Part shown: positions 1-62,895 of the stretch, in pieces
Numbering within the stretch: the stretch's first letter is position 1
How the letters are laid out: each line of letters starts with the position of its first letter
Assembly: GCF_011045215.1 (NCBI RefSeq)
Contig: NZ_CP049201.1
Source: Escherichia coli
GTDB lineage: Bacteria > Pseudomonadota > Gammaproteobacteria > Enterobacterales > Enterobacteriaceae
Reading direction: 5' to 3' (one strand)
DNA length: 64,000 nt
Notes under the pieces: generated by a model
What the model was told of the DNA's origin: nothing
Databases searched by the model: none
Seen by the model: the letters and a program-made list of their open reading frames with translations, nothing else
Position numbers and translations under genes: made by a program

Positions 1-147
1 GGCGTGGCCCGGGGCATCACGCTTCATACCGCGGTGAAGGACGACGACAGCGAGGTGGCCGGGATTATCCGCGCACTGCTTGCTGGTGAGGAAAACGCCA
101 GGCTGCGTGCAGCCCACTGGTTACATGAGAGGGGGCTGAAAGTATGA
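1..147 (+). CDS. 3' end of an upstream phage late-region ORF (partial, function unknown)
   Basis: Frame 1 is open from the window edge to TGA at 145-147, overlapping the ATG of the next gene (ATGA coupling). No family recognised from the 48 visible residues. Confidence 0.35.
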   Translation, partial: GVARGITLHTAVKDDDSEVAGIIRALLAGEENARLRAAHWLHERGLKV

Positions 148-521
148 AGCTGATTCTGCCTTTTCCACCCAGCGTGAACACCTACTGGCGACACCCCAAC
201 AAAGGGGCATTTGCTGGTAAGAGCCTGATAAGCGCGGCGGGGCGAAAATTCCAGAGTGCGGCGTGCACAGCAATAGTTGAGCAGTTACGTCGTCTGCCGA
301 AACCAACGTCGGCACCTGCTTCAGTGGAGATCGTGTTGTTTCCTCCGGATAACCGGATCCGCGATCTGGACAACTATAACAAGGCGCTGTTTGACGCCCT
401 GACCCACGCGGGTGTGTGGGAAGACGACAGCCAGGTGAAAAGAATGCTGGTGGAGTGGGGACCGGTTATCCCGGAAACGGATGTTGCGGGTTGTTGTTCT
501 GCGGGTTCTGTTCTTCGTTGA
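144..521 (+). CDS. RusA-family Holliday-junction resolvase-like protein
   Basis: 125-aa ORF with motifs LPFPPSVNTYWRH and RIRDLDNYNKALFDALTHAGVWEDDSQV, matching the RusA signature ([41 protein letters not shown]) including the acidic catalytic residues. Confidence 0.6.
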   Translation: MKLILPFPPSVNTYWRHPNKGAFAGKSLISAAGRKFQSAACTAIVEQLRRLPKPTSAPASVEIVLFPPDNRIRDLDNYNKALFDALTHAGVWEDDSQVKRMLVEWGPVIPETDVAGCCSAGSVLR

Positions 522-689
522 CATGAGGTTGCCCCGTATTCAGTTTCGCTGATTTGTATTGTCTGAAGTTGTTTTTACGTTAAGTTGATGCAGATCAATT
601 AATACGATACCTGCGTCATAATTGATTATTTGACGTGGTTTGATGGCGTAGATGCACGTTGTGACATGTAGATGATAATTATTATCATT

Positions 690-905
690 TTGCGGGTCCT
701 TTCCGGCGATCCGACATGTTACGGGGCGGCGACCTCGCGGGTTTTCGCTATTTATGAAAATTTTCCGGTTTAAGGCGTTTCCGTTCTTCTTCGTCGTAAC
801 TTAATGTTTTTATTTAAAATACCCCCTGAAAAGAAAGGAAACGACAGGTGCTGAAAGCGAGCTTTTTGGCCTCTGTCGTTTCCTTTCTCTGTTTTTGGCC
901 GTGGA
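690..905 (+). other. Lambda-type cos site (cosQ-cosN-cosB); cosN 12-nt cohesive-end sequence GGGCGGCGACCT at about 724-735
   Basis: ...gggtcctttccggcgatccgacatgttacg/gggcggcgacctcgcgggttttcgctatttatgaaaattttccggtttaaggcgtttccg... is near-identical to the joined right and left ends of phage lambda as I recall them, and sits immediately upstream of Nu1. Confidence 0.85.
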
Positions 906-912
906 ATGAACA

Positions 913-1458
913 ATGGAAGTCAACAAAAAGCAGCTGGCTGACATTTTCGGTGCGAGTATCCGTACCATTCAGAACTGGCAGGAACAGGGAATGCCCGTTC
1001 TGCGAGGCGGTGGCAAGGGTAATGAGGTGCTTTATGACTCTGCCGCCGTCATAAAATGGTATGCCGAAAGGGATGCTGAAATTGAGAACGAAAAGCTGCG
1101 CCGGGAGGTTGAAGAACTGCGGCAGGCCAGCGAGACAGATCTCCAGCCAGGGACTATTGAGTACGAACGCCATCGACTTACGCGTGCGCAGGCCGACGCA
1201 CAGGAGCTGAAAAATGCCAGAGACTCCGCTGAAGTGGTGGAAACCGCATTCTGTACTTTCGTGCTGTCGCGGATCGCAGGTGAAATTGCCAGTATTCTCG
1301 ACGGGATCCCCCTGTCGGTGCAGCGGCGTTTTCCGGAACTGGAAAACCGACATGTTGATTTCCTGAAACGGGATATCATCAAAGCCATGAACAAAGCAGC
1401 CGCGCTGGATGAACTGATACCGGGGTTGCTGAGTGAATATATCGAACAGTCAGGTTAA
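913..1458 (+). CDS. nohD: Phage terminase small subunit Nu1 (DNA-packaging protein)
   Basis: 181-aa product MEVNKKQLADIFGASIRTIQNWQEQGMPVLRGGGKGNEVLYDSAAVIKWY... is essentially identical to lambda Nu1; its 3' end overlaps the start of gene A as in lambda. Confidence 0.95.
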   Translation: MEVNKKQLADIFGASIRTIQNWQEQGMPVLRGGGKGNEVLYDSAAVIKWYAERDAEIENEKLRREVEELRQASETDLQPGTIEYERHRLTRAQADAQELKNARDSAEVVETAFCTFVLSRIAGEIASILDGIPLSVQRRFPELENRHVDFLKRDIIKAMNKAAALDELIPGLLSEYIEQSG

Positions 1459-2452
1459 CAGGCTGCGGCATTTTGTCCGCGCCGGGCTTCGCTCACTGTT
1501 CAGGCCGGAGCCACAGACCGCCGTTGAATGGGCGGATGCCAATTACTATCTCCCAAAAGAATCCGCATACCAGGAAGGGCGCTGGGAAACACTGCCCTTT
1601 CAGAGGGCCATCATGAATGCGATGGGCAGTGACTACATCCGCGAGGTGAATGTGGTGAAGTCTGCCCGTGTTGGTTATTCCAAAATGCTGCTGGGTGTTT
1701 ATGCCTACTTCATAGAGCATAAGCAGCGCAATACCCTTATCTGGTTGCCGACGGATGGTGATGCCGAGAACTTTATGAAAACCCACGTTGAGCCGACTAT
1801 TCGTGATATTCCGTCGCTGCTGGCGCTGGCCCCGTGGTATGGCAAAAAGCACCGGGATAACACGCTCACCATGAAGCGTTTCACCAATGGGCGTGGCTTC
1901 TGGTGCCTGGGCGGTAAAGCGGCAAAAAACTACCGTGAAAAGTCAGTGGATGTGGCGGGTTATGATGAACTTGCTGCCTTTGATGAGGATATTGAACAGG
2001 AAGGCTCTCCGACGTTCCTGGGCGATAAGCGTATTGAAGGCTCGGTCTGGCCAAAGTCCATCCGTGGCTCCACGCCCAAAGTGAGAGGCACCTGCCAGAT
2101 TGAGCGTGCAGCCAGTGAATCCCCGCATTTTATGCGTTTTCATGTTGCCTGCCCGCATTGCGGGGAGGAGCAGTATCTTAAATTTGGCGACAAAGAGACG
2201 CCGTTTGGCCTCAAATGGACGCCGGATGACCCCTCCAGCGTGTTTTATCTCTGCGAGCATAATGCCTGCGTCATCCGCCAGCAGGAGCTGGACTTTACTG
2301 ATGCCCGTTATATCTGCGAAAAGACCGGGATCTGGAGGGGAATACCAACATCGCCGGTGTCACGGTGGTGTTCCGGGCAGGTGAACAGGAGCAGACACCG
2401 CCGGAGGGATTTGAATCCTCCGGATCCGAGACGGTGCTGGGTACGGAAGTGA
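1433..2452 (+). pseudogene. Terminase large subunit (lambda gpA) N-terminal ~300 codons, truncated; A-like sequence ends near 2335 and the ORF runs on out of frame to 2452
   Basis: MNISNSQVNRLRHFVRAGLRSLFRPEPQTAVEWADANYYLPKESAYQEGRWETLPFQRAIMNAMGSDYIREV...CEKTGIW matches lambda gpA, then continues as unrelated residues RGIPTSPVSRW... gpA is ~640 aa in lambda. Confidence 0.85.
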
Positions 2453-2823
2453 AATACGACACGCCGATCACCCGGACCATCACGTCTGCAAACATCGACC
2501 GTCTGCGCTTTACCTTCGGTGTGCAGGCACTGGTGGAAACCACCTCAAAGGGGGACCGGAATCCATCGGAAGTCCGCCTGCTGGTTCAGATACAACGTAA
2601 CGGTGGCTGGGTGACGGAAAAAGACATCACCATTAAGGGCAAAACCACCTCGCAGTATCTGACCTCGGTGGTGGTGGGTAACCTGCCGCCGCGCCCGTTT
2701 AATATCCGGATGCGCAGGATGACGCCGGACAGCACCACAGACCAGCTGCAGAACAAAACGCTCTGGTCGTCATACACCGAAATCATCGATGTGAAACAGT
2801 GCTACCTTCTGCCCGTAAGGTGA
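2338..2823 (+). pseudogene. Internal fragment (~160 codons) of lambda-like tail-tip/host-specificity gene J, with no N-terminus or C-terminus
   Basis: Translation ...VVFRAGEQEQTPPEGFESSGSETVLGTEVKYDTPITRTITSANIDRLRFTFGVQALVETTSKGDRNPSEVRLLVQIQRNGGWVTEKDITIKGKTTSQY...IIDVKQCY matches the middle of lambda J. It is in a different frame from the truncated A and ends in unrelated sequence. Confidence 0.8.
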
Positions 2824-4004
2824 ATGGTAAGGCGCTTTCAGCGGATATAACACTGACGCCGAAAGATATTGGTACGCTTAACTCAACAACAATGTCATTC
2901 AGCGGTGGTGCTGGTTGGTTCAAATTAGCAACGGTAACCATGCCACAGGCGAGTTCTGTTGTTTCAATTACGTTGATTGGTGGAGCTGGATTTAACGTGG
3001 GGTCACCTCAACAGGCAGGTATATCTGAACTTGTTTTGCGTGCAGGTAATGGTAATCCGAAGGGGATTACTGGTGCTTTATGGCAGCGCACATCGACAGG
3101 GTTTACAAATTTTGCCTGGGTCAATACATCTGGTGATACTTACGATATTTACGTTGCAATCGGAAATTATGCGACTGGTGTAAATATTCAATGGGATTAT
3201 ACCAGTAATGCCAGCGTGACGATTCATACGTCACCAGCATATTCTGCTAATAAGCCGGAAGGGTTAACGGACGGTACAGTTTATTCACTCTATACGCCAT
3301 CAGAACAGTTTTATCCGCCTGGCGCACCAATCCCGTGGCCATCAGATACCGTTCCGTCTGGCTATGCCCTGATGCAGGGGCAGACTTTTGACAAATCTGC
3401 CTACCCGAAACTTGCAGTCGCTTATCCGTCAGGCGTGATCCCTGATATGCGTGGCTGGACGATTAAGGGCAAGCCCGCCAGTGGTCGTGCCGTATTGTCT
3501 CAGGAACAGGACGGCATTAAATCGCATACCCACAGCGCCAGCGCATCCAGTACGGATTTGGGTACGAAAACCACATCGTCGTTTGATTACGGAACCAAAT
3601 CCACGAATAACACCGGGGCGCATACCCATAGTATTAGCGGGACTGCAAATAGTGCCGGTGCGCACCAACACAAGAGTTCCGGTGCATTTGGTGGCACGAA
3701 CACGAGCATTTTTCCTAATGGTTATACTGCGATTTCAAATCCAAGCGCGGGGATTATGAGCACAACAAGCGGTACTGGCCAGACTCGTAATGCAGGGAAG
3801 ACATCATCAGATGGTGCTCATACCCACTCACTGTCCGGCACTGCTGCAAGCGCAGGTGCACACGCACATACTGTCGGTATTGGTGCTCATACGCACTCCG
3901 TTGCGATTGGTTCACATGGACACACCATCACCGTTAACGCTGCTGGTAACGCGGAAAACACCGTCAAAAACATCGCATTTAACTATATTGTGAGGCTTGC
4001 ATAA
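2799..4004 (+). CDS. Side tail fibre protein, C-terminal receptor-binding portion with His-box repeats (probably a 5'-truncated remnant using an internal GTG)
   Basis: 401-aa ORF with repeated GAHTHS/GAHQH/GAHAHT/GSHGHT motifs and a C-terminal ...[22 protein letters not shown] typical of lambdoid Stf and T4 gp37-like fibre tips. Its stop overlaps the tfa start (TAATGG). The N-terminal tail-attachment region expected for Stf is absent. Confidence 0.65.
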
Positions 4005-4585
4005 TGGCATTCAGAATGAGTGAACAACCACGGACCATAAAAATTTATAATCTGCTGGCCGGAACTAATGAATTTATTGGTGAAGGTGACGCATATATTC
4101 CACCTCATACAGGTCTGCCAGCAAACAGTACCGATATTGCACCGCCAGATATTCCGGCAGGCTTCGTGGCTGTTTTCAACAGTGATGAGGCATCGTGGCA
4201 TCTTGTTGAAGACCATCGGGGTAAAACGGTTTATGACGTGGCTTCCGGCGACGCGTTATTTATTTCTGAACTCGGCTTATTACCGGAAAATGTCACCTGG
4301 TTATCCCCGGAAGGGGAGTTTCAGAAGTGGAACGGCACAGCCTGGGTGAAAGATGCAGAAGCAGAAAAACTGTTCCGGATCCGGGAGGCGGAAGAAACAA
4401 AAAACAACCTGATGCAGGTAGCCAGTGAGCATATTGCGCCACTTCAGGATGCTGTAGATCTGGAAATCGCAACGGAGGAAGAAAACTCGTTGCTGGAAGC
4501 CTGGAAGAAGTATCGGGTGTTGCTGAACCGTGTTGATACATCAACTGCACCTGATATTGAGTGGCCTGTAATACCAGAAGTTTAA
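4004..4585 (+). CDS. Tail fibre assembly protein (Tfa)
   Basis: 193-aa ORF translationally coupled to stf; the C-terminus ...[49 protein letters not shown] is the conserved Tfa motif. Confidence 0.85.
4431..4543 (+). repeat. Direct repeat copy 1: 3' segment of tfa (about 88% identical to 8260-8373)
   Basis: atattgcgccacttcaggatgctgtagatctggaaatcgcaacggaggaagaaaactcgttgctggaagcctggaagaagtatcgggtg... is nearly repeated at 8260-8373. Confidence 0.8.
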
Positions 4586-4589
4586 AATA

Positions 4590-4617
4590 AAAGCCCGCTT
4601 AAAATATCGCGGGCTTC
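4590..4617 (-). terminator. Hairpin (aaagcccgc...gcgggcttt) with a T-run on the minus strand; candidate terminator for the minus-strand catalase operon and possibly for tfa
   Basis: Inverted repeat aagcccgc / gcgggctt between convergent tfa and catalase genes; the minus-strand reading gives the stem followed by TTATTTTA. Confidence 0.5.
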
Positions 4618-4704
4618 GAAATATAAATGTATTTTCAGAGGCTAGAGCTTAGGATATCTCAGCGGCAATTAACTTATGAGGGATAGCTAAATACCAGAAG
4701 ATAA

Positions 4705-5595
4705 TTAGTTTTTACTATTTATCTTTGTTTGTGGTTCTCCTTCAGCAAGCTCAGCGCCAGTGACAGGATTGATGTCTTCATGGGATTTCAACCTTGTTGC
4801 CATAGCTTTTATCATAGCTTCTTGCTTGGTCGAAAGATTTATCGAGGCCTTCCCATCCCCACCGTCAACCGCTGGAACTGGATCGGAAATATAGTCAAAG
4901 TTTTCATCACTGTTCCAACTACCTCTGACGTCTTCACCTTCTGACATGTTGTAATATACGTTTTTGTATTTCTCAATTGGTGGTAATTTTCCTGGTGGAA
5001 AGGTGTTGCGAATTGAATGTAATGCTTTTTCAAATGAAAGCATGTGTGCTGCTTCCCTGGTCATTAAAAATGCCAGAGTGTCTTTTACTCCAGGATCATC
5101 AGTAACATTAATGAGACGTTCGTAAATGATCTTTGCCCGAGCTTCAGCTGCAATATTTGAACGAAGATCGGCCGTGACTTCGCCAATAGTATCAACATAA
5201 GCTGCAGTCCAGGGTACTCCAGCTGAATTAGTTAATGCTGGGCCTCCTCCGTAGAGGAGAGAAGTTATATGGCTGTCATTGCCATTTTGAGTTAAGGAAC
5301 GGTAAAGCTCAGCTTCATTCTCAGTTCCTTCAGCAAGTGCTCCTTTTGCACCTTTGTTGAGCATACCAACAAGAGAACCAATAATTTCGAGATGACTTAG
5401 TTCTTCTGTTGCTATGTCCATCAGCATATCCCTTCGGCCTGCATCTTCATCACTTAAGCCTTGAGTGAAGTATCGGCATGCTGCTGCAAGCTCACCCTGT
5501 GGCCCGCCGAATTGTTCTAAAAGTAGATTAGCCAAGCCTGGGTTTGGCTCACTTACACGTACTGTATATTGAAGTTTTTTCACGTGTCTAAACAT
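4705..5595 (-). CDS. Manganese (non-haem) catalase, KatN-like
   Basis: 296-aa product with ferritin-like Mn-catalase architecture (…EELSHLEIIGSLV…, …TREAAHMLSFEKAL…). It is last in a yciG-yciF-yciE-catalase gene order, as in the Salmonella yciGFE-katN operon. Confidence 0.8.
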   Translation of the reverse strand: MFRHVKKLQYTVRVSEPNPGLANLLLEQFGGPQGELAAACRYFTQGLSDEDAGRRDMLMDIATEELSHLEIIGSLVGMLNKGAKGALAEGTENEAELYRSLTQNGNDSHITSLLYGGGPALTNSAGVPWTAAYVDTIGEVTADLRSNIAAEARAKIIYERLINVTDDPGVKDTLAFLMTREAAHMLSFEKALHSIRNTFPPGKLPPIEKYKNVYYNMSEGEDVRGSWNSDENFDYISDPVPAVDGGDGKASINLSTKQEAMIKAMATRLKSHEDINPVTGAELAEGEPQTKINSKN

Positions 5596-5613
5596 AATGC
5601 CTCCTCAAAAGAA

Positions 5614-6120
5614 TTATTTTTTGGCTTCAACTCCATCAATTTCAGATCTGACCATGAATTGCTCAGTGGTGTCAGGAATATGGTTAAGAAGCCATTCAGC
5701 CATTTGTTTTTCTTCATTAAGAATTGCTTCAATAATGGGTACTGAAGCTGTATCACCCGCATTTTTGGCTGCTGCGAGAAGAGATGTGTAGCACGCAATT
5801 TCAAATTGTTCGAAAACATAGCCACTGATCGAACCTTTGACAATTTCATCAGATGGAAAAATTCCACCAATGGATTGCCCAAACGCGGCCATTTTACTCA
5901 TAGAGTCTTTAATGACAGAGCGCGAAATATTATTACGATCAAGTATGCTTTCAAGCTGTGAAAGCTGGTTCTTTGTTTCGCTAATGTGCTGCTCAATTCT
6001 GGAACGTAACTCTGGATAGTTTTCTATCCGGCTGGCCATAGACTCAAGCATTTTTTCAGCTTGTTTCTCCATCGCATGTGCATCACGAAGCCAGTCATGG
6101 TAATGTTCAATTCTATTCAT
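5614..6120 (-). CDS. YciE-like ferritin-like/DUF892 stress protein
   Basis: 168-aa product MNRIEHYHDWLRDAHAMEKQAEKMLESMASRIENYPELR... closely resembles E. coli YciE. Confidence 0.85.
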   Translation of the reverse strand: MNRIEHYHDWLRDAHAMEKQAEKMLESMASRIENYPELRSRIEQHISETKNQLSQLESILDRNNISRSVIKDSMSKMAAFGQSIGGIFPSDEIVKGSISGYVFEQFEIACYTSLLAAAKNAGDTASVPIIEAILNEEKQMAEWLLNHIPDTTEQFMVRSEIDGVEAKK

Positions 6121-6156
6121 AATCTGTTTATCCTAAAAGAAATTGAAGTCTATAGT

Positions 6157-6663
6157 TCAGGAGTTATCCTGAGCTTTTTTATTAACGTTATTAAATGCCA
6201 GGTCTGTTAATTTGACATCAGTAGCTTTTTCCTCTTCCAGTGTTTCTTTCAGGAGTTTAGCCGCTTTTTTATATCCTAATTGCTCAGCGAGTGTTACCAA
6301 AGTGCCATAACTGGCAATTTCATAGTGCTCTACTTTTTGTGCTGCAGCAATCAATGCAGCATCACGTACTTCATTTTTATCAGTGCTTTCAATTACCTCA
6401 TTCGCCTCTTCGATAAGTCCTTCCATTGCGGCACACTTAATTCTTTTCAATTTAAGACCATCTTCAGAATCAACAATCTGATCGATGCGTTCAATTTGAC
6501 CATGTGTCTCATCAAGATGTGACTGAAAAGCAGCGGTTAATTTATCACTATATGCAGAGCGACTAAGTTTAGACAGTGCCTTTGTTAGTTGTTTCTCAGC
6601 GCTGTATGTATCCGATAATAAGTGGATGAAGATATCTTCAACAGATTTAATTTGCATAATCAC
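6157..6663 (-). CDS. YciF-like DUF892 stress protein
   Basis: 168-aa product ...VEDIFIHLLSDTYSAEKQLTKAL...EVRDAALIAAAQKVEHYEIASYGTL... closely resembles E. coli YciF. Confidence 0.85.
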   Translation of the reverse strand: MIMQIKSVEDIFIHLLSDTYSAEKQLTKALSKLSRSAYSDKLTAAFQSHLDETHGQIERIDQIVDSEDGLKLKRIKCAAMEGLIEEANEVIESTDKNEVRDAALIAAAQKVEHYEIASYGTLVTLAEQLGYKKAAKLLKETLEEEKATDVKLTDLAFNNVNKKAQDNS

Positions 6664-6735
6664 TCCAGAGTTTTCACTGCGAGCCCGTAGGCTCGCAGTT
6701 AGCTTCAGTTATTCACGAATGTAGGGGATGATAAA

Positions 6736-6918
6736 TTAAGAGTCAGATTTACGGCCGCCACCATGGCTATTCTGACCACCTTTTTTCCCTGCTTCTGATG
6801 CTCTTTGTGGATCGTTTTTAAAATTACCGCCACTATGTTGGCCGCCTTTACGACCAGCGTCAGAAGCTTTTTGTCGATCTTCAGCGAAATTACCTGCACC
6901 GCCACGATGTTCGGTCAT
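6736..6918 (-). CDS. YciG-like KGG-repeat general stress protein
   Basis: 60-aa product MTEHRGGAGNFAEDRQKASDAGRKGGQHSGGNFKNDPQRASEAGKKGGQ... with KGG repeats, resembling YciG/YmdF; first gene of the four-gene minus-strand operon. Confidence 0.8.
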   Translation of the reverse strand: MTEHRGGAGNFAEDRQKASDAGRKGGQHSGGNFKNDPQRASEAGKKGGQNSHGGGRKSDS

Positions 6919-7383
6919 ATCATTTCTCCTCTGATTTTCAAATTGTAAATAACATGTGCCTTGTCAGCACCCAATTAACTCTAGTAACAAATAAGAAAGT
7001 GTCAAATAACAGATTGGTATGCGCATTTTGATGTGAGAAATAATAATTGTAAAAATGTGCGCTCAGTGAGTATAATCTATTGATATCTTAGTGATTAACG
7101 GAAAATTTAGGTTGTAACTCAAAAGATTAATAAACCTAAATTTACATTTCTATATTATTTGGTGTGCCTGTTGTTGTTTTTCTCAATAAGAATACTCTGT
7201 AAAATAATTCAATCGTAAGATGGTTGTTATTCATATTTTTTTGAGATAGTTCCTAATAGGGTCCATCCCTTGAATAAATAATTGTTTTAAAATTTCGTCT
7301 AAAGAACTAATTACAAGAAAATTTATATAGTCCAAGGAATCATGATTGTACTTAACCATAAGATTTGAGCGTAAAAATTAATG

Positions 7384-7414
7384 CGCAGCACGTCGTATGC
7401 AAGAACGTGCTGCG
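7384..7414 (-). terminator. Rho-independent terminator candidate downstream of the methyltransferase gene
   Basis: 9-bp perfect stem cgcagcacg / cgtgctgcg; on the minus strand it is followed by ATTAATTTTT. Confidence 0.55.
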
Positions 7415-7422
7415 GTTGGATG

Positions 7423-8091
7423 CTATTTTTTCCCTGAAGCGGAAAACATTACTACAGTACCTTGAACCTTGGTTTTAACATTCTCGAAATGCTCTGAGAG
7501 TATATGTGTTAAGCCTTCTTCGGAATCTCTTGTGTTTGAAAAGATGCCTTTCTGATTGTAAATGCGCATCAGTTTTTGACCGAAGCGATTGTGCACAATT
7601 CCATCGCCAAGAATTGTGGCTCCGTATAGAGTTCCATCGCCAGTTAAGGCCTGCGCCGCATTGCGTATTACACAGCTTTTTGTAGATATATTTCCAGGCA
7701 GGCAGTGAAGAAGGTAAAACATGGAAATGGAATCAAATTGACCATGTAACGCCGCGGGATAAGGTTCAAAAACATCATGGCTAATTTTATGTTTAATTTT
7801 TGATTCCCCAGCCCTTGTAGATGCCGCGTTCAGGCTAGCTTCGTTCAAATCCATTAAAGATATCAGACTACTCTCAGGTACGTGAGTAAGGTAAAACCCA
7901 GTTCCAACACCAATATCCAGATGGTTGTTACCTAAATGTTCCAGAAAGTGTGGAAGAAGGTGTTCCTTTGTAGGACATCCCCATGCAAGCCGATTTGATA
8001 CTCCCAAAACCCACCAGTCATAAAGCTTTAGGGTAAGTGGTGTGTAAATTTTAGCCCCATCATCTGTGTTTTTTTTCATTAATTTCACCAT
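7423..8091 (-). CDS. ybcY: Class I SAM-dependent methyltransferase (YbcY-like), apparently intact
   Basis: 222-aa ORF with the SAM-binding motif LDIGVGTGFY and a Rossmann-type methyltransferase layout. It occupies the ybcY position of DLP12, between the tfa copies. Confidence 0.7.
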   Translation of the reverse strand: MVKLMKKNTDDGAKIYTPLTLKLYDWWVLGVSNRLAWGCPTKEHLLPHFLEHLGNNHLDIGVGTGFYLTHVPESSLISLMDLNEASLNAASTRAGESKIKHKISHDVFEPYPAALHGQFDSISMFYLLHCLPGNISTKSCVIRNAAQALTGDGTLYGATILGDGIVHNRFGQKLMRIYNQKGIFSNTRDSEEGLTHILSEHFENVKTKVQGTVVMFSASGKK

Positions 8092-8147
8092 GTTATAGTT
8101 TTATTTGTGAATTAAATCAATTATGGCAATGAATTACAAGGGGTTAA

Positions 8148-8453
8148 ATGCTGCCGCAGCATGGCGATATTGAAATAGCCTGGTATGCTTCAATACAGCA
8201 GGAGCCGAATGGCTGGAAGACCGTCACCACACAGTTCTACATCCAGGAATTCAGTGAGTATATTGCGCCACTGCAGGATGCTGTAGATCTGGAAATCGCA
8301 ACGGAGGAAGAAAGATCGTTGCTGGAGGCATGGAATAAATATCGGGTATTGTTGAATCGTGTTGATACATCAGTAGCTCTGGGTATGAAGCTGTTTGTAA
8401 CTCATGTTACAGTAACAGCCATTACTATCTCGAAGGTGCAAAATGTATATTGA
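8148..8453 (+). pseudogene. tfaX: Tail fibre assembly gene remnant (tfaX-like), carrying only part of the Tfa C-terminal domain
   Basis: 101-aa ORF with ...[38 protein letters not shown]... but no Tfa N-terminal half, and a divergent C-terminal tail. Confidence 0.7.
8260..8373 (+). repeat. Direct repeat copy 2: tfa 3' segment (pairs with 4431-4543)
   Basis: tattgcgccactgcaggatgctgtagatctggaaatcgcaacggaggaagaaagatcgttgctggaggcatggaataaatatcgggta... Confidence 0.8.
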
Positions 8454-8581
8454 TTTGATATTTTATAAATTTACTTCGAATCTGGCACGTCAACTTTTGA
8501 TTAAAGTAATATCAGTTTTCGGCGAAAAAAGGACCGTGTACATGAGACGATTTCATACAAGAATAACAAAAATATGAATAT

Positions 8582-8615
8582 GCTCCCAATGCAATATATG
8601 TTTTGCATTGGGAGC
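8582..8615 (-). terminator. Rho-independent terminator candidate for the peptidase gene
   Basis: 12-bp stem gctcccaatgca / tgcattgggagc; the minus-strand reading is followed by a T-rich run. Confidence 0.55.
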
Positions 8616-8636
8616 AAATAGCGGAATATTTTGAAA

Positions 8637-10121
8637 TTATTGTATTTCTGCTTCAGAATTTCCTGGGCAGTATATATTTTCTATTTTTTGTGGAGTGATC
8701 AGGTGATGTACAACTGCTTTATCTACACATAAATTAACTCCGGTGAGAGCTAATGTATGCCCATCACCATTTATTGTTAGTAACGGGCTGGAAAATTTCT
8801 CTGCCATCTTACGGGCATTAATCCAGGGCGTTGTTGGATCGTATTTGTGTGCTACAAACAGTAAACCAGAGGGCAGAACAGTATTTTTCAGGCGAGTTTT
8901 GTTCAGGTCGCTATGTATTGGCCATAATTCACAAAAATCAGGTGAATCGGAACGTCCATTGTCAAAGTTAATAGCCGGGAAGGCATTCGCAAGAGCCTCT
9001 TTTCGGAATTTTCGCTCTTCTGGTGTTAATTGCTCATCCCCCTGATCTACACAAAGGATTACCCCCGAAGCATCACTTGACTCTTCTGAGGCTATCGGAG
9101 CACTGAGCGCAGTTTCAATTTCATTACTGACAATCCCCTGAGAGAACTGGCGTATGGCAGTTGCAAGGGTTGGCCATGATGAACGCCATAGCAGAAGGTC
9201 TGTTGTTAATGATATGAGTTCATCTGAAGATATATTTTCTCCCTTACTGTCTAATAAAGGTTTGTGATGTAATTTTGATAATAGCTCATGGAACTGAGTT
9301 ATTGCCTTATCTCTGTCTGAAGAAAGCGGGCAACTTTTTGTACGCGCACACCAGGATGCAAAGCGATCAAACGTTTCCTGATAACTCTGTGCCTGTTTGA
9401 GTTGCCATGTGAAGTTGTTCTCCAGGTCATCGATATCGACGACTCCATCAAGAACGATAGATCTTACGTTGTAGGGAAAACGTTCTGCATATAAGGCTGC
9501 AATTTGAGTTCCATACGAATACGCCACGGCTGTCAGTTGTTTATCCCCCAAGGCTTGCCTAATACGATCAATATCGTATACAGCCTCGTTAGAGCCGATA
9601 TGGCGAATGACTTCGGCTCCGGTATTATGGATACAGGCATTAATTTTATTTAATACTTGTTGCTTTTCGGTTATGTTTTCCTGAGTCTCTGTATCTGATT
9701 GTCGGCAGTTTATTGTCGGAGTGGACTGTCCGACGCCTCGAGGATCAAATCCAATAATATCCCATGACTCACGAAGATTTGTGACTGGCCAGTCAAAGTT
9801 AATATAAGGATTTATGCCTGGCAACCCGGGACCACCACTTATTATCAGGATACTTCCTTTATGCTTGCTTTTTGCCGGCAATTTTGTCAACGCTAGTTTG
9901 ACTTGTGATTTTTTTTCATAAGAAGCATCTCCGCCTGTGTCTGTATATTTTAATGGAACAGACAAATAACCACATAGTAAGTCAGGAGACGGTTTTTCCT
10001 CACCAAACCAGTGGTTGAATTGACTGGCCATACAGGATTGCCACTGTATCTGCTGGGCAGATACGGTTACTGGTAGAAGTAACGTTAAAACAACTTTGAA
10101 ATGAGTAATTATTTTTCGCAT
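8637..10121 (-). CDS. Secreted alpha/beta-hydrolase, S33-type (tripeptidyl/prolyl aminopeptidase-like) peptidase
   Basis: 494-aa ORF with an N-terminal signal peptide (MRKIITHFKVVLTLLLPVTVSA), a GGPGLPG oxyanion-type motif and a nucleophile elbow VAYSYGTQ (G-x-S-x-G variant). Confidence 0.65.
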   Translation of the reverse strand: MRKIITHFKVVLTLLLPVTVSAQQIQWQSCMASQFNHWFGEEKPSPDLLCGYLSVPLKYTDTGGDASYEKKSQVKLALTKLPAKSKHKGSILIISGGPGLPGINPYINFDWPVTNLRESWDIIGFDPRGVGQSTPTINCRQSDTETQENITEKQQVLNKINACIHNTGAEVIRHIGSNEAVYDIDRIRQALGDKQLTAVAYSYGTQIAALYAERFPYNVRSIVLDGVVDIDDLENNFTWQLKQAQSYQETFDRFASWCARTKSCPLSSDRDKAITQFHELLSKLHHKPLLDSKGENISSDELISLTTDLLLWRSSWPTLATAIRQFSQGIVSNEIETALSAPIASEESSDASGVILCVDQGDEQLTPEERKFRKEALANAFPAINFDNGRSDSPDFCELWPIHSDLNKTRLKNTVLPSGLLFVAHKYDPTTPWINARKMAEKFSSPLLTINGDGHTLALTGVNLCVDKAVVHHLITPQKIENIYCPGNSEAEIQ

Positions 10122-32882: not shown

Positions 32883-33322
32883 TTATGTTGGCGTTTTCTA
32901 TTCAGTATAGAAGTCGGAGCGGCTGGGCGAGATGCGGAAGTTCTGGAATGTTTCTTTTTTTGGTGATGGTGAACTGATGGTGCCTGAAGCAATTTGGCTA
33001 CTTTTGCAATGTGACAAGTTATGGCACGGCTGGCTGGTGGCGAAGAATTTTGACGATTGAGGCATGTAGAAAAAACGGGCTCAGCTTCAGTTGATTAAAT
33101 GAGGAGTGAGAAGTCCGAAACAGGATTTACTGTATAAATAAACAGCCATTTTGTTGAGGAAGGGTAAGATAACGGCGGGTGCCTGAAGCTTTCCGGTTTC
33201 AGGTTTACTCTGAGGTCTGGAAAGATGAAGCCCCAGGAGATATTTCTATCAACCCTGGGGCTGCCACTCCAAACCAGACAATTTGGATGGTAGTTCCTTC
33301 TTCGCATGGAGGCAATATAAAC

Positions 33323-33475
33323 ATGCTGACGAAATATGCTCTTGTGGCAGTCATAGTGCTGTGTTTGACGGTACTGGGATTTACGCTTCTGGTCGGAGAC
33401 TCGCTGTGTGAGTTTACGGTGAAGGAACGTAATATTGAGTTCAGGGCTGTTCTCGCTTACGAACCGAAGAAGTAG
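33323..33475 (+). CDS. hokE: Hok-family type I toxin HokE (small membrane peptide)
   Basis: 50-aa product [50 protein letters not shown]; an in-frame upstream-extended ORF (33179-33475) is consistent with a mok-like leader frame. Confidence 0.85.
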
Positions 33476-34249: not shown

Positions 34250-34355
34250 AAACTGCCTGATGCGCTACGCTTATCAGGCCTACATGGTCCTGCAATATAT
34301 TGAATTGGCAAGATTTTTGTAGGCCGGATAAGGCGTTCACGCCGCATCCGGCATG
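34250..34355. repeat. REP/BIME palindromic elements between entD and fepA
   Basis: gcctgatgcgctacgcttatcaggcctaca and tgtaggccggataaggcgttcacgccgcatccggca are canonical E. coli REP units. Confidence 0.85.
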
Positions 34356-62524: not shown

Positions 62525-62895
62525 TAATTTGTCCTTTTCAGTCAGTGCAAAAGTCGAGTAAAAGGCATAACCTATCATTGTCATAGGTAAGAGCTTAGAT
62601 CAGGTGATTGCCCTTTGTTTATGAGGGTGTTGTAATCCATGTCGTTGTTGCATTTGTAAGAGCAACACCGCAGCCTGCAGACAGGCGCTGAAGATACCAA
62701 AGGGTAGTTCAGATTACACGGTCACCTGGAAAGGGGGCCATTTTACTTTTTATCGCCGCTGGCGGTGCAAAGTTCACAAAGTTGTCTTACGAAGGTTGTA
62801 AGGTAAAACTTATCGATTTGATAATGGAAACGCATTAGCCGAATCGGTAAAAATTGGTTACCTTACATCTCATCGAAAACACGGAGGAAGTATAG

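Follow-up and report, generated by a model that had tools for sequence, protein, structure and literature searches.

The analysed stretch of Escherichia coli DNA, referred to here as the window, is 64,000 nucleotides long, and the features at its left end are listed in the table below. The ORF list and its translation give an open reading frame of 125 codons on the plus strand, 144..521, which runs from an ATG at 144-146 to a TGA at 519-521. As had been proposed from the sequence letters, its product belongs to the RusA family: it matches the Pfam family PF05866 (RusA) with an E-value of 8.3e-14 and 52.7 bits, the gathering cut-off being 22.8 bits, over profile positions 1-110 of 124, and a phmmer search of PDB sequences returned 1q8r (E. 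coli RusA; E 3.7e-15) and 2h8c (E 1.9e-14). The coupling to an upstream frame that had been noticed at the same time is real. In the ATGA at 144-147 the start codon overlaps the upstream TGA (145-147), and at the intact prophage locus L001 the annotated coding sequences 5821..6147 and 6144..6533 share an identical 4-nt overlap. The first of these is annotated as 'LexA family transcriptional regulator', and the full-length protein matches Pfam LexA_DNA_bind (2.9e-19). The window contains 143 bp of DNA upstream of the truncated rusA gene (rusA'), and the LexA-type gene begins outside it, about 180 bp beyond its left edge. The last base of the ORF lies 202 bp from cosN, in agreement with the original prediction, which had put the distance at about 200 bp and had regarded the gene as abnormally close to cos.

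Features at the left end of the window, with their positions, strand and supporting evidence
Feature	Position	Strand	Evidence
LexA-DNA-binding-domain family regulator, 3' part (48 codons and stop)	1..147	+	100% identical to L001 6001-6147
rusA', the first 111 codons of a RusA-family Holliday junction resolvase gene of 129 codons	144..476	+	Pfam, 1q8r, identity to IHE3034
Reciprocal chimeric ORF, 67 aa	321..524	-	17 ylcI/ynfO codons (MSTKNRTRRTTTRNIRF) and 50 codons antisense through rusA
Putative deletion junction, GGAA(A) microhomology common to both parents	473..477		Window, intact rusA 3' end and ynfO region aligned three ways
ylcI/ynfO remnant, only 17 codons from the start codon on	473..524	-	ynfO alignment
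Foreign 14-codon tail (TDVAGCCSAGSVLR) and TGA of the chimeric ORF	477..521	+	Antisense of the ylcI/ynfO 5' end
Homologous to the final 244 bp of phage lambda (48259-48502)	480..723	+	Ungapped alignment to NC_001416
cosN 12-nt cohesive-end sequence GGGCGGCGACCT	724..735	+	Exact string search; followed by lambda left end and Nu1
nohD/Nu1 terminase small subunit, full length, 181 aa	913..1458	+	Pfam Phage_Nu1 3.9e-101, profile positions 1-164 of 164
Terminase large subunit gpA, truncated, N-terminal ATPase part only	1433..2336	+	Pfam GpA_ATPase 2.3e-51
Tail tip protein J, internal fragment (FNIII-A), out of frame with the gpA remnant	2365..2823	+	Pfam FNIII-A_GpJ 1.2e-42; L005 lacks 2337-2802
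Side tail fibre, 401 aa (from 2799), and tail fibre assembly, 193 aa (4004-4585)	2799..4585	+	Pfam

Judged by sequence, the DNA around cosN is a cos region of the lambda type, with cosN placed between DNA of the lambda right end and DNA of the left end close to Nu1. The left half of cosN (711-723) reads ccgacaTgttacg where lambda has ccgacaGgttacg, a difference of one base (T at 717), and several more substitutions relative to lambda occur at 668-708. Positions 473-1500 are 99.3-99.4% identical to the ylcI/ynfO-cos-nohD/nohA regions of many E. coli, under which ylcI/ynfO, nohD/nohA and the terminase large subunit are annotated. Per E. coli genome, the median copy number of the cos-nohD segment is 2 and the maximum 15. 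The homology to gpA ends at 2336, which is also the end of the blastn segment 473-2336 shared with the loci L002 and L005. The tail fibre genes form the late end of a cryptic prophage; they are recognized by the Pfam families Collar and Phage_fiber, and the assembly gene by Caudo_TAP (3e-44), and their counterparts in the loci L003 and L005 are annotated as tail fiber and tail fiber assembly protein. A full-length match to the Rfam family IS009 (RF02111; 227.6 bits) lies on the plus strand at 4347-4545, inside the tail fibre assembly gene (tfa).

Further to the right, positions 4705-8372 carry genes for a Mn catalase, two ferritin-like proteins, a small general stress protein and a ybcY-like SAM methyltransferase, and a second tfa remnant of 121 bp (8252-8372) is 90% identical to 4423-4543. 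The genes from the Mn catalase to the methyltransferase stand between the two tfa copies and appear to lie inside the right end of the prophage, as in strain B4103-1. In the chromosomal part of the window, a match to the sok antitoxin RNA (RF01794; 80.2 bits) at 33177-33331 on the plus strand implies a hok/sok-type locus, and the ES036 sRNA (RF02751) is matched at 34276-34317 on the minus strand with 40.5 bits, barely over the threshold. A marginal match to the enterobacterial sRNA STnc70 (RF02069) was found at 62658-62751 on the plus strand (43 bits, gathering score 40).

The left end of the window is composed of two unrelated pieces, 1-476 and 473 onward. When positions 1-1500 were compared by megablast with 5,426 complete E. 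coli genomes, thousands of matches were obtained, every one of which begins at 473, and in none of these genomes did any place cover at least 80% of the 1,500 positions. Positions 1-480 alone are covered to at least 80% in 2,201 E. coli genomes, many of which are 100% identical over 1-476, and the matching genes are annotated 'LexA family transcriptional regulator' and 'RusA family crossover junction endodeoxyribonuclease'. Phages SfII, mEp460 and several Stx phages are 95-98% identical to 1-476, and here too the match stops at that point. In the protein alignment, residues 1-111 are identical to the intact 129-aa RusA of IHE3034 and the two sequences are unrelated thereafter, the window protein continuing with TDVAGCCSAGSVLR and the intact RusA with GKVEITISKYEKTAGAAA (18 codons). 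The DNA follows rusA up to ...CCCGGAA and then ynfO and lambda from GGAAA(G)CGGATG..., and 4 nt are common to the two blastn segments, 1-476 and 473-1430. The joint at 473-477 contains no long repeat. A deletion mediated by an insertion sequence was considered and ruled out: the joint is free of IS sequence, the two parental sequences abutting directly. The lambda-right-end-like DNA that had been placed downstream of the ORF is indeed present, but it begins inside the ORF, at about 477, and therefore neither the last 14 codons nor the stop codon come from rusA.

On the opposite strand, the ylcI/ynfO gene has been cut in the same place. The ynfO coding sequence of locus L002 spans 3820..4053 (minus strand), the match of the window there begins at 4001, and the domain DUF3950, which corresponds to YnfO residues 20-49, is lost from the remnant. 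The reciprocal 67-aa ORF that starts from these codons has no Pfam match and is absent from the protein collection. Consensus searches returned a hairpin resembling a terminator within the foreign tail (484-504) and two overlapping weak promoter-like sites on the plus strand at 659-688, both as consensus matches only; the promoter and terminator scan of positions 1-1000 gave nothing bearing on rusA expression.

These alignments decide on one of the two explanations that had been offered for a rusA gene beside cos, namely that it is a distinct RusA paralogue native to the late region. The position of the gene, 202 bp from cosN, is all that speaks for such a paralogue. However, the nucleotide sequences of rusA' and of the gene upstream of it match nin-region sequences with 100% identity, the homology switches at codon 111 to antisense ylcI, and the arrangement occurs in 0 of 50,697 phage records and 0 of 5,426 complete E. 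coli genomes. Because positions 1-476, the upstream gene included, are nin DNA and the homology ends abruptly inside rusA, a late-region paralogue is virtually certain to be the wrong explanation. Ancestrally, rusA' clearly belonged to a nin region. Its upstream neighbour is that of nin regions, its downstream neighbours including quuD would have been lost through deletion, and its present context seems no longer to fit.

The organization from which the locus may have arisen can be read from its relatives. In IHE3034 and B4103-1 the rusA gene has 390 nt and encodes 129 aa, and it is followed by KilA-N, DUF968 and antiterminator genes. B4103-1 carries both flanks in a single prophage, in the order and orientation of the window, at tRNA-Arg (argU) beside intD, which is the DLP12 position. 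The flanks are 7,150 bp apart in B4103-1, so that about 7.15 kb is missing here, but this size and the exact deleted content are estimated from relatives, because the right flank is only 98.3% identical to B4103-1 and 99.3-99.4% identical to other strains. Missing in comparison with B4103-1 are the 3' end of rusA, KilA-N, DUF968, quuD (the Q antiterminator), a porin gene, essD, rrrD and rzpD, as well as bor, ybcV, ybcW and most of ylcI. To the right, positions 3836-9700 are colinear with the argU locus of B4103-1 at 97.8% identity and hold the tail fibre, tfa, Mn catalase and ferritin-like genes, the ybcY-like methyltransferase gene and the second tfa remnant, and 3836-25000 matches the nfrA/nfrB/cus region.

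The presence of rusA' beside cos is very probably a scar of prophage decay, left by a deletion of about 7 kb in a decaying prophage of the DLP12 type. We infer the mechanism as follows. An already defective DLP12-type lambdoid prophage would have resided at the argU/DLP12 position, near the ybcY-like, nfrAB and cus genes, with the order LexA-type HTH gene, rusA (129 aa), KilA-N, DUF968, quuD, porin, essD-rrrD-rzpD, bor, ybcV, ybcW, ylcI, cos and nohD. A single deletion of about 7.15 kb, arising by illegitimate recombination at a microhomology of 4-5 nt (GGAA[A]), would then have joined codon 111 of rusA to codon 17 of the oppositely oriented ylcI. From there the rusA frame would run through 14 nonsense codons, antisense to ylcI, to a chance TGA 202 bp before cosN, and the loss of the late-gene antiterminator and the lysis cassette in the same deletion would have further fixed the prophage as defective. 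Further damage is visible in this prophage: gpA breaks off at 2336, a fragment of J lies out of frame at 2365-2823, and the side tail fibre gene (stf) and tfa follow directly. The other explanation offered originally, a rearrangement of the late and nin regions, is correct to the extent that the change can be described as a simple internal deletion of about 7.15 kb, the flanks being colinear in B4103-1.

Recombination between two lambdoid prophages, or between a prophage and an incoming phage, could also have brought the two flanks together, and their best relatives do differ, the left flank being 100% identical to IHE3034 and B4103-1 and the right flank 99.3-99.4% identical to other strains and 98.3% to B4103-1; the number of cos-nohD copies per E. 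coli genome (median 2, up to 15) would also provide partners for such an exchange. Only 4-5 nt are common to the parents at the joint, however, which excludes homologous exchange. Moreover, the flanks have kept the order and orientation of a single prophage, the synteny with the B4103-1 argU prophage continues downstream, and lambdoid mosaicism alone accounts for differing best relatives. A two-prophage origin is therefore considered very unlikely, and a deletion within one prophage is the preferred explanation.

The junction is rare in public data. A look-up of the exact protein, which took in NCBI and the Logan assemblies, found the 125-aa sequence in NCBI as QIF15811.1 / WP_164476145.1, from a single E. 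coli contig of 5,409,430 bp; WP_164476145.1 is named 'RusA family crossover junction endodeoxyribonuclease' there. A blastn search with window positions 1-900 found the junction in none of 50,697 phage records, and an exact 35-mer spanning it had 0 matches in 100,044 GTDB species representatives. Because the junction is absent from complete E. coli genomes, phage records and GTDB representatives, it appears, as far as sequence collections indicate, to be a private event of one lineage. That junction and exact protein occur in one public contig only, and that prophage repeats are common sites of misassembly, would be expected if two prophage segments had been joined artificially during assembly. 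Misassemblies are, however, normally found at long repeats and not at 4-5 nt of microhomology in unique sequence, and the remnants of gpA, J and stf nearby show that the prophage has in any case undergone heavy deletion, so that an assembly artefact is highly improbable and a genuine deletion remains the favoured origin.

The kind of event is, by contrast with the junction itself, not rare. The 90%-identity cluster that holds the chimera has 3,158 members, most of the listed ones with a length of 129 aa, and in an exhaustive protein search many representatives agreed with this rusA allele in their N-terminal part before diverging from it. Independent truncations or fusions of this allele in public assemblies (P0018-P0024) break at residues ~70 to 109; one of these (P0018) continues after RusA residues 1-108 as a phage tail sheath protein (Pfam Phage_sheath_1 3.5e-24). 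Such cases suggest that the nin rusA gene is often lost to prophage decay, or else broken in frameshifted assemblies. Truncation or fusion of the 3' part of this rusA allele is a common kind of event, and the scar described here is an ordinary one.

Whether the chimeric protein could still act as a resolvase depends on what the breakpoint has spared. Alignment with E. coli RusA, which had been proposed as a check, places D74, D76, D95 and K80 of the window protein opposite D70, D72, D91 and K76 of K-12 RusA, so that the catalytic aspartates, whose loss was to have counted against the original prediction, are conserved. Catalytic roles for these four K-12 residues are described in PMC1636454 and the studies cited there. 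Among 43 diverse RusA homologues, D94 and D95 do not vary, and the conservation of D74, D76 and K80 is 90% or higher. According to PMC1636454, RusA folds into a mixed sheet of four strands with two helices at its flanks. In agreement with this fold, AlphaFold2 models the intact 129-aa protein (mean pLDDT 95.1) with the elements E2-6, H31-48, E59-66, H75-89, E98-105 and E113-120, and the model superposes on 1q8r_A with a TM-score of 0.92 and an rmsd of 1.4 A. The native strand E113-120 is modelled with a pLDDT of ~98, and in the 43-sequence alignment an alternating strand-like segment follows Gly112. The breakpoint removes Gly112 and this whole fourth strand: Gly112, invariant in 43 of 43 diverse RusA sequences, is Thr in the chimera, and coverage of the Pfam RusA profile is reduced from 1-123 of 124 in the intact allele to 1-110 of 124, the last 13 positions being lost.

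Because rusA' breaks off after 111 of 129 codons and its product lacks the invariant Gly112 as well as the fourth beta-strand, the activity of the product is doubtful, and the chimeric 125-aa protein is probably inactive or unstable as a Holliday junction resolvase. The original prediction had implied a functional RusA; the catalytic aspartates it pointed to have been kept, but the loss of Gly112 and the fourth strand speaks against the function. In the AlphaFold2 model of the chimera, residues 1-110 have a pLDDT above 93, whereas the foreign tail reaches only ~59 and 48. The model nevertheless still draws a strand at 114-122, and Val114 has been kept by chance, for which reason a surrogate strand and some residual activity are conceivable. 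That the chimera is still a working resolvase, with the antisense-ylcI tail (DVAGCCSAGS...) in place of the fourth strand and with suppression of ruv mutations if it were expressed, would fit these two features, the well-modelled core, and the location of all known catalytic residues and of the Arg-rich DNA-binding loop region upstream of the breakpoint (PMC1636454). It is nonetheless unlikely, given the replacement of a glycine that is invariant in 43 homologues by Thr, a tail pLDDT of 48-59 as compared to 98 for the native strand, and the loss of the last 13 profile positions; the modelled strand may merely echo a bias from the family alignment. The more specific proposal that the deletion made a new protein, consisting of the RusA core and a 14-residue antisense-ylcI C-terminus, which still folds, dimerises and resolves junctions, is quite unlikely. 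If true, it would mean that the fourth RusA beta-strand can be replaced by unrelated sequence.

In E. coli K-12, rusA suppresses ruv mutations only when it is activated by upstream insertions, so that in a repressed prophage even an undamaged copy is normally silent. The expectation of a latent ruv suppressor at this locus warrants caution. The NCBI annotation of WP_164476145.1 is over-optimistic, and a pseudogene flag would be fitter for a 3'-truncated fusion. The locus can serve as a clean and datable example of prophage decay, in which one microhomology-mediated deletion would have taken away the antiterminator of the late genes together with the lysis cassette, bor and the neighbouring morons and left two reciprocal chimeric ORFs. 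It indicates neither a new architecture of lambdoid genomes nor a new resolvase. Beyond annotation its importance is small: the protein is already in public databases, and the scar is an ordinary one.

Among the closest known relatives is the RusA protein of the K-12 prophage DLP12 (PDB 1q8r, 2h8c, 2h8e; PF05866), which belongs to the same family and has the same catalytic residues. Its gene has the ancestral nin position upstream of a Q-type antiterminator, and the prophage that carries it lies at the same place in the chromosome. However, K-12 RusA and the window RusA are only 38% identical, and the latter therefore represents a different allele. In addition, the window protein is cut after residue 111 and carries 14 foreign residues instead of Gly112 and strand 4, and the window lacks the genes that lie 3' of rusA in DLP12, from quuD through ybcW. 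The intact allele is represented by WP_000767127.1, the 129-aa RusA of the IHE3034 and B4103-1 argU prophages and of phages SfII, mEp460 and several Stx phages. These genes have the identical ATGA overlap with a LexA-type gene, and over 1-476 their nucleotide identity is 100% in the E. coli prophages and 95-98% in the phages, but they contain a further 18 codons (GKVEITISKYEKTAGAAA), and next to them come KilA-N, DUF968 and the antiterminator.

The right ends of DLP12 and Qin, with ylcI/ynfO, cos, nohD/nohA, truncated terminase and tfa, resemble the window in their cos-proximal DNA, which is 99.3-99.4% identical, and in their style of decay, in which a truncated terminase large subunit is joined to tail fibre genes. 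In contrast to DLP12 and Qin, the window has retained only 17 codons of ylcI, and everything between ylcI and rusA is gone. A similar nohD-gpA'-stf-tfa arrangement occurs in 11 complete E. coli genomes. Strain RM10410, the one of these that was examined, has the K-12 DLP12-type order ybcN-ninE-ybcO-rusA-ylcG-quuD-porin-essD-rrrD-rzpD-bor-ybcV-ybcW-ylcI-nohD-truncated terminase-tail protein-tfa. It was rejected as a direct parent, since its prophage lies at another site (attB lambda / bio region), carries a K-12-type rusA and is without the J fragment (2337-2802). Because site, rusA type and J fragment differ, the RM10410 arrangement is only a parallel case. The window has the same architecture as the RM10410 type, but with another nin module, consisting of the LexA-type gene and the other RusA allele, and with the interval from rusA to ylcI removed.
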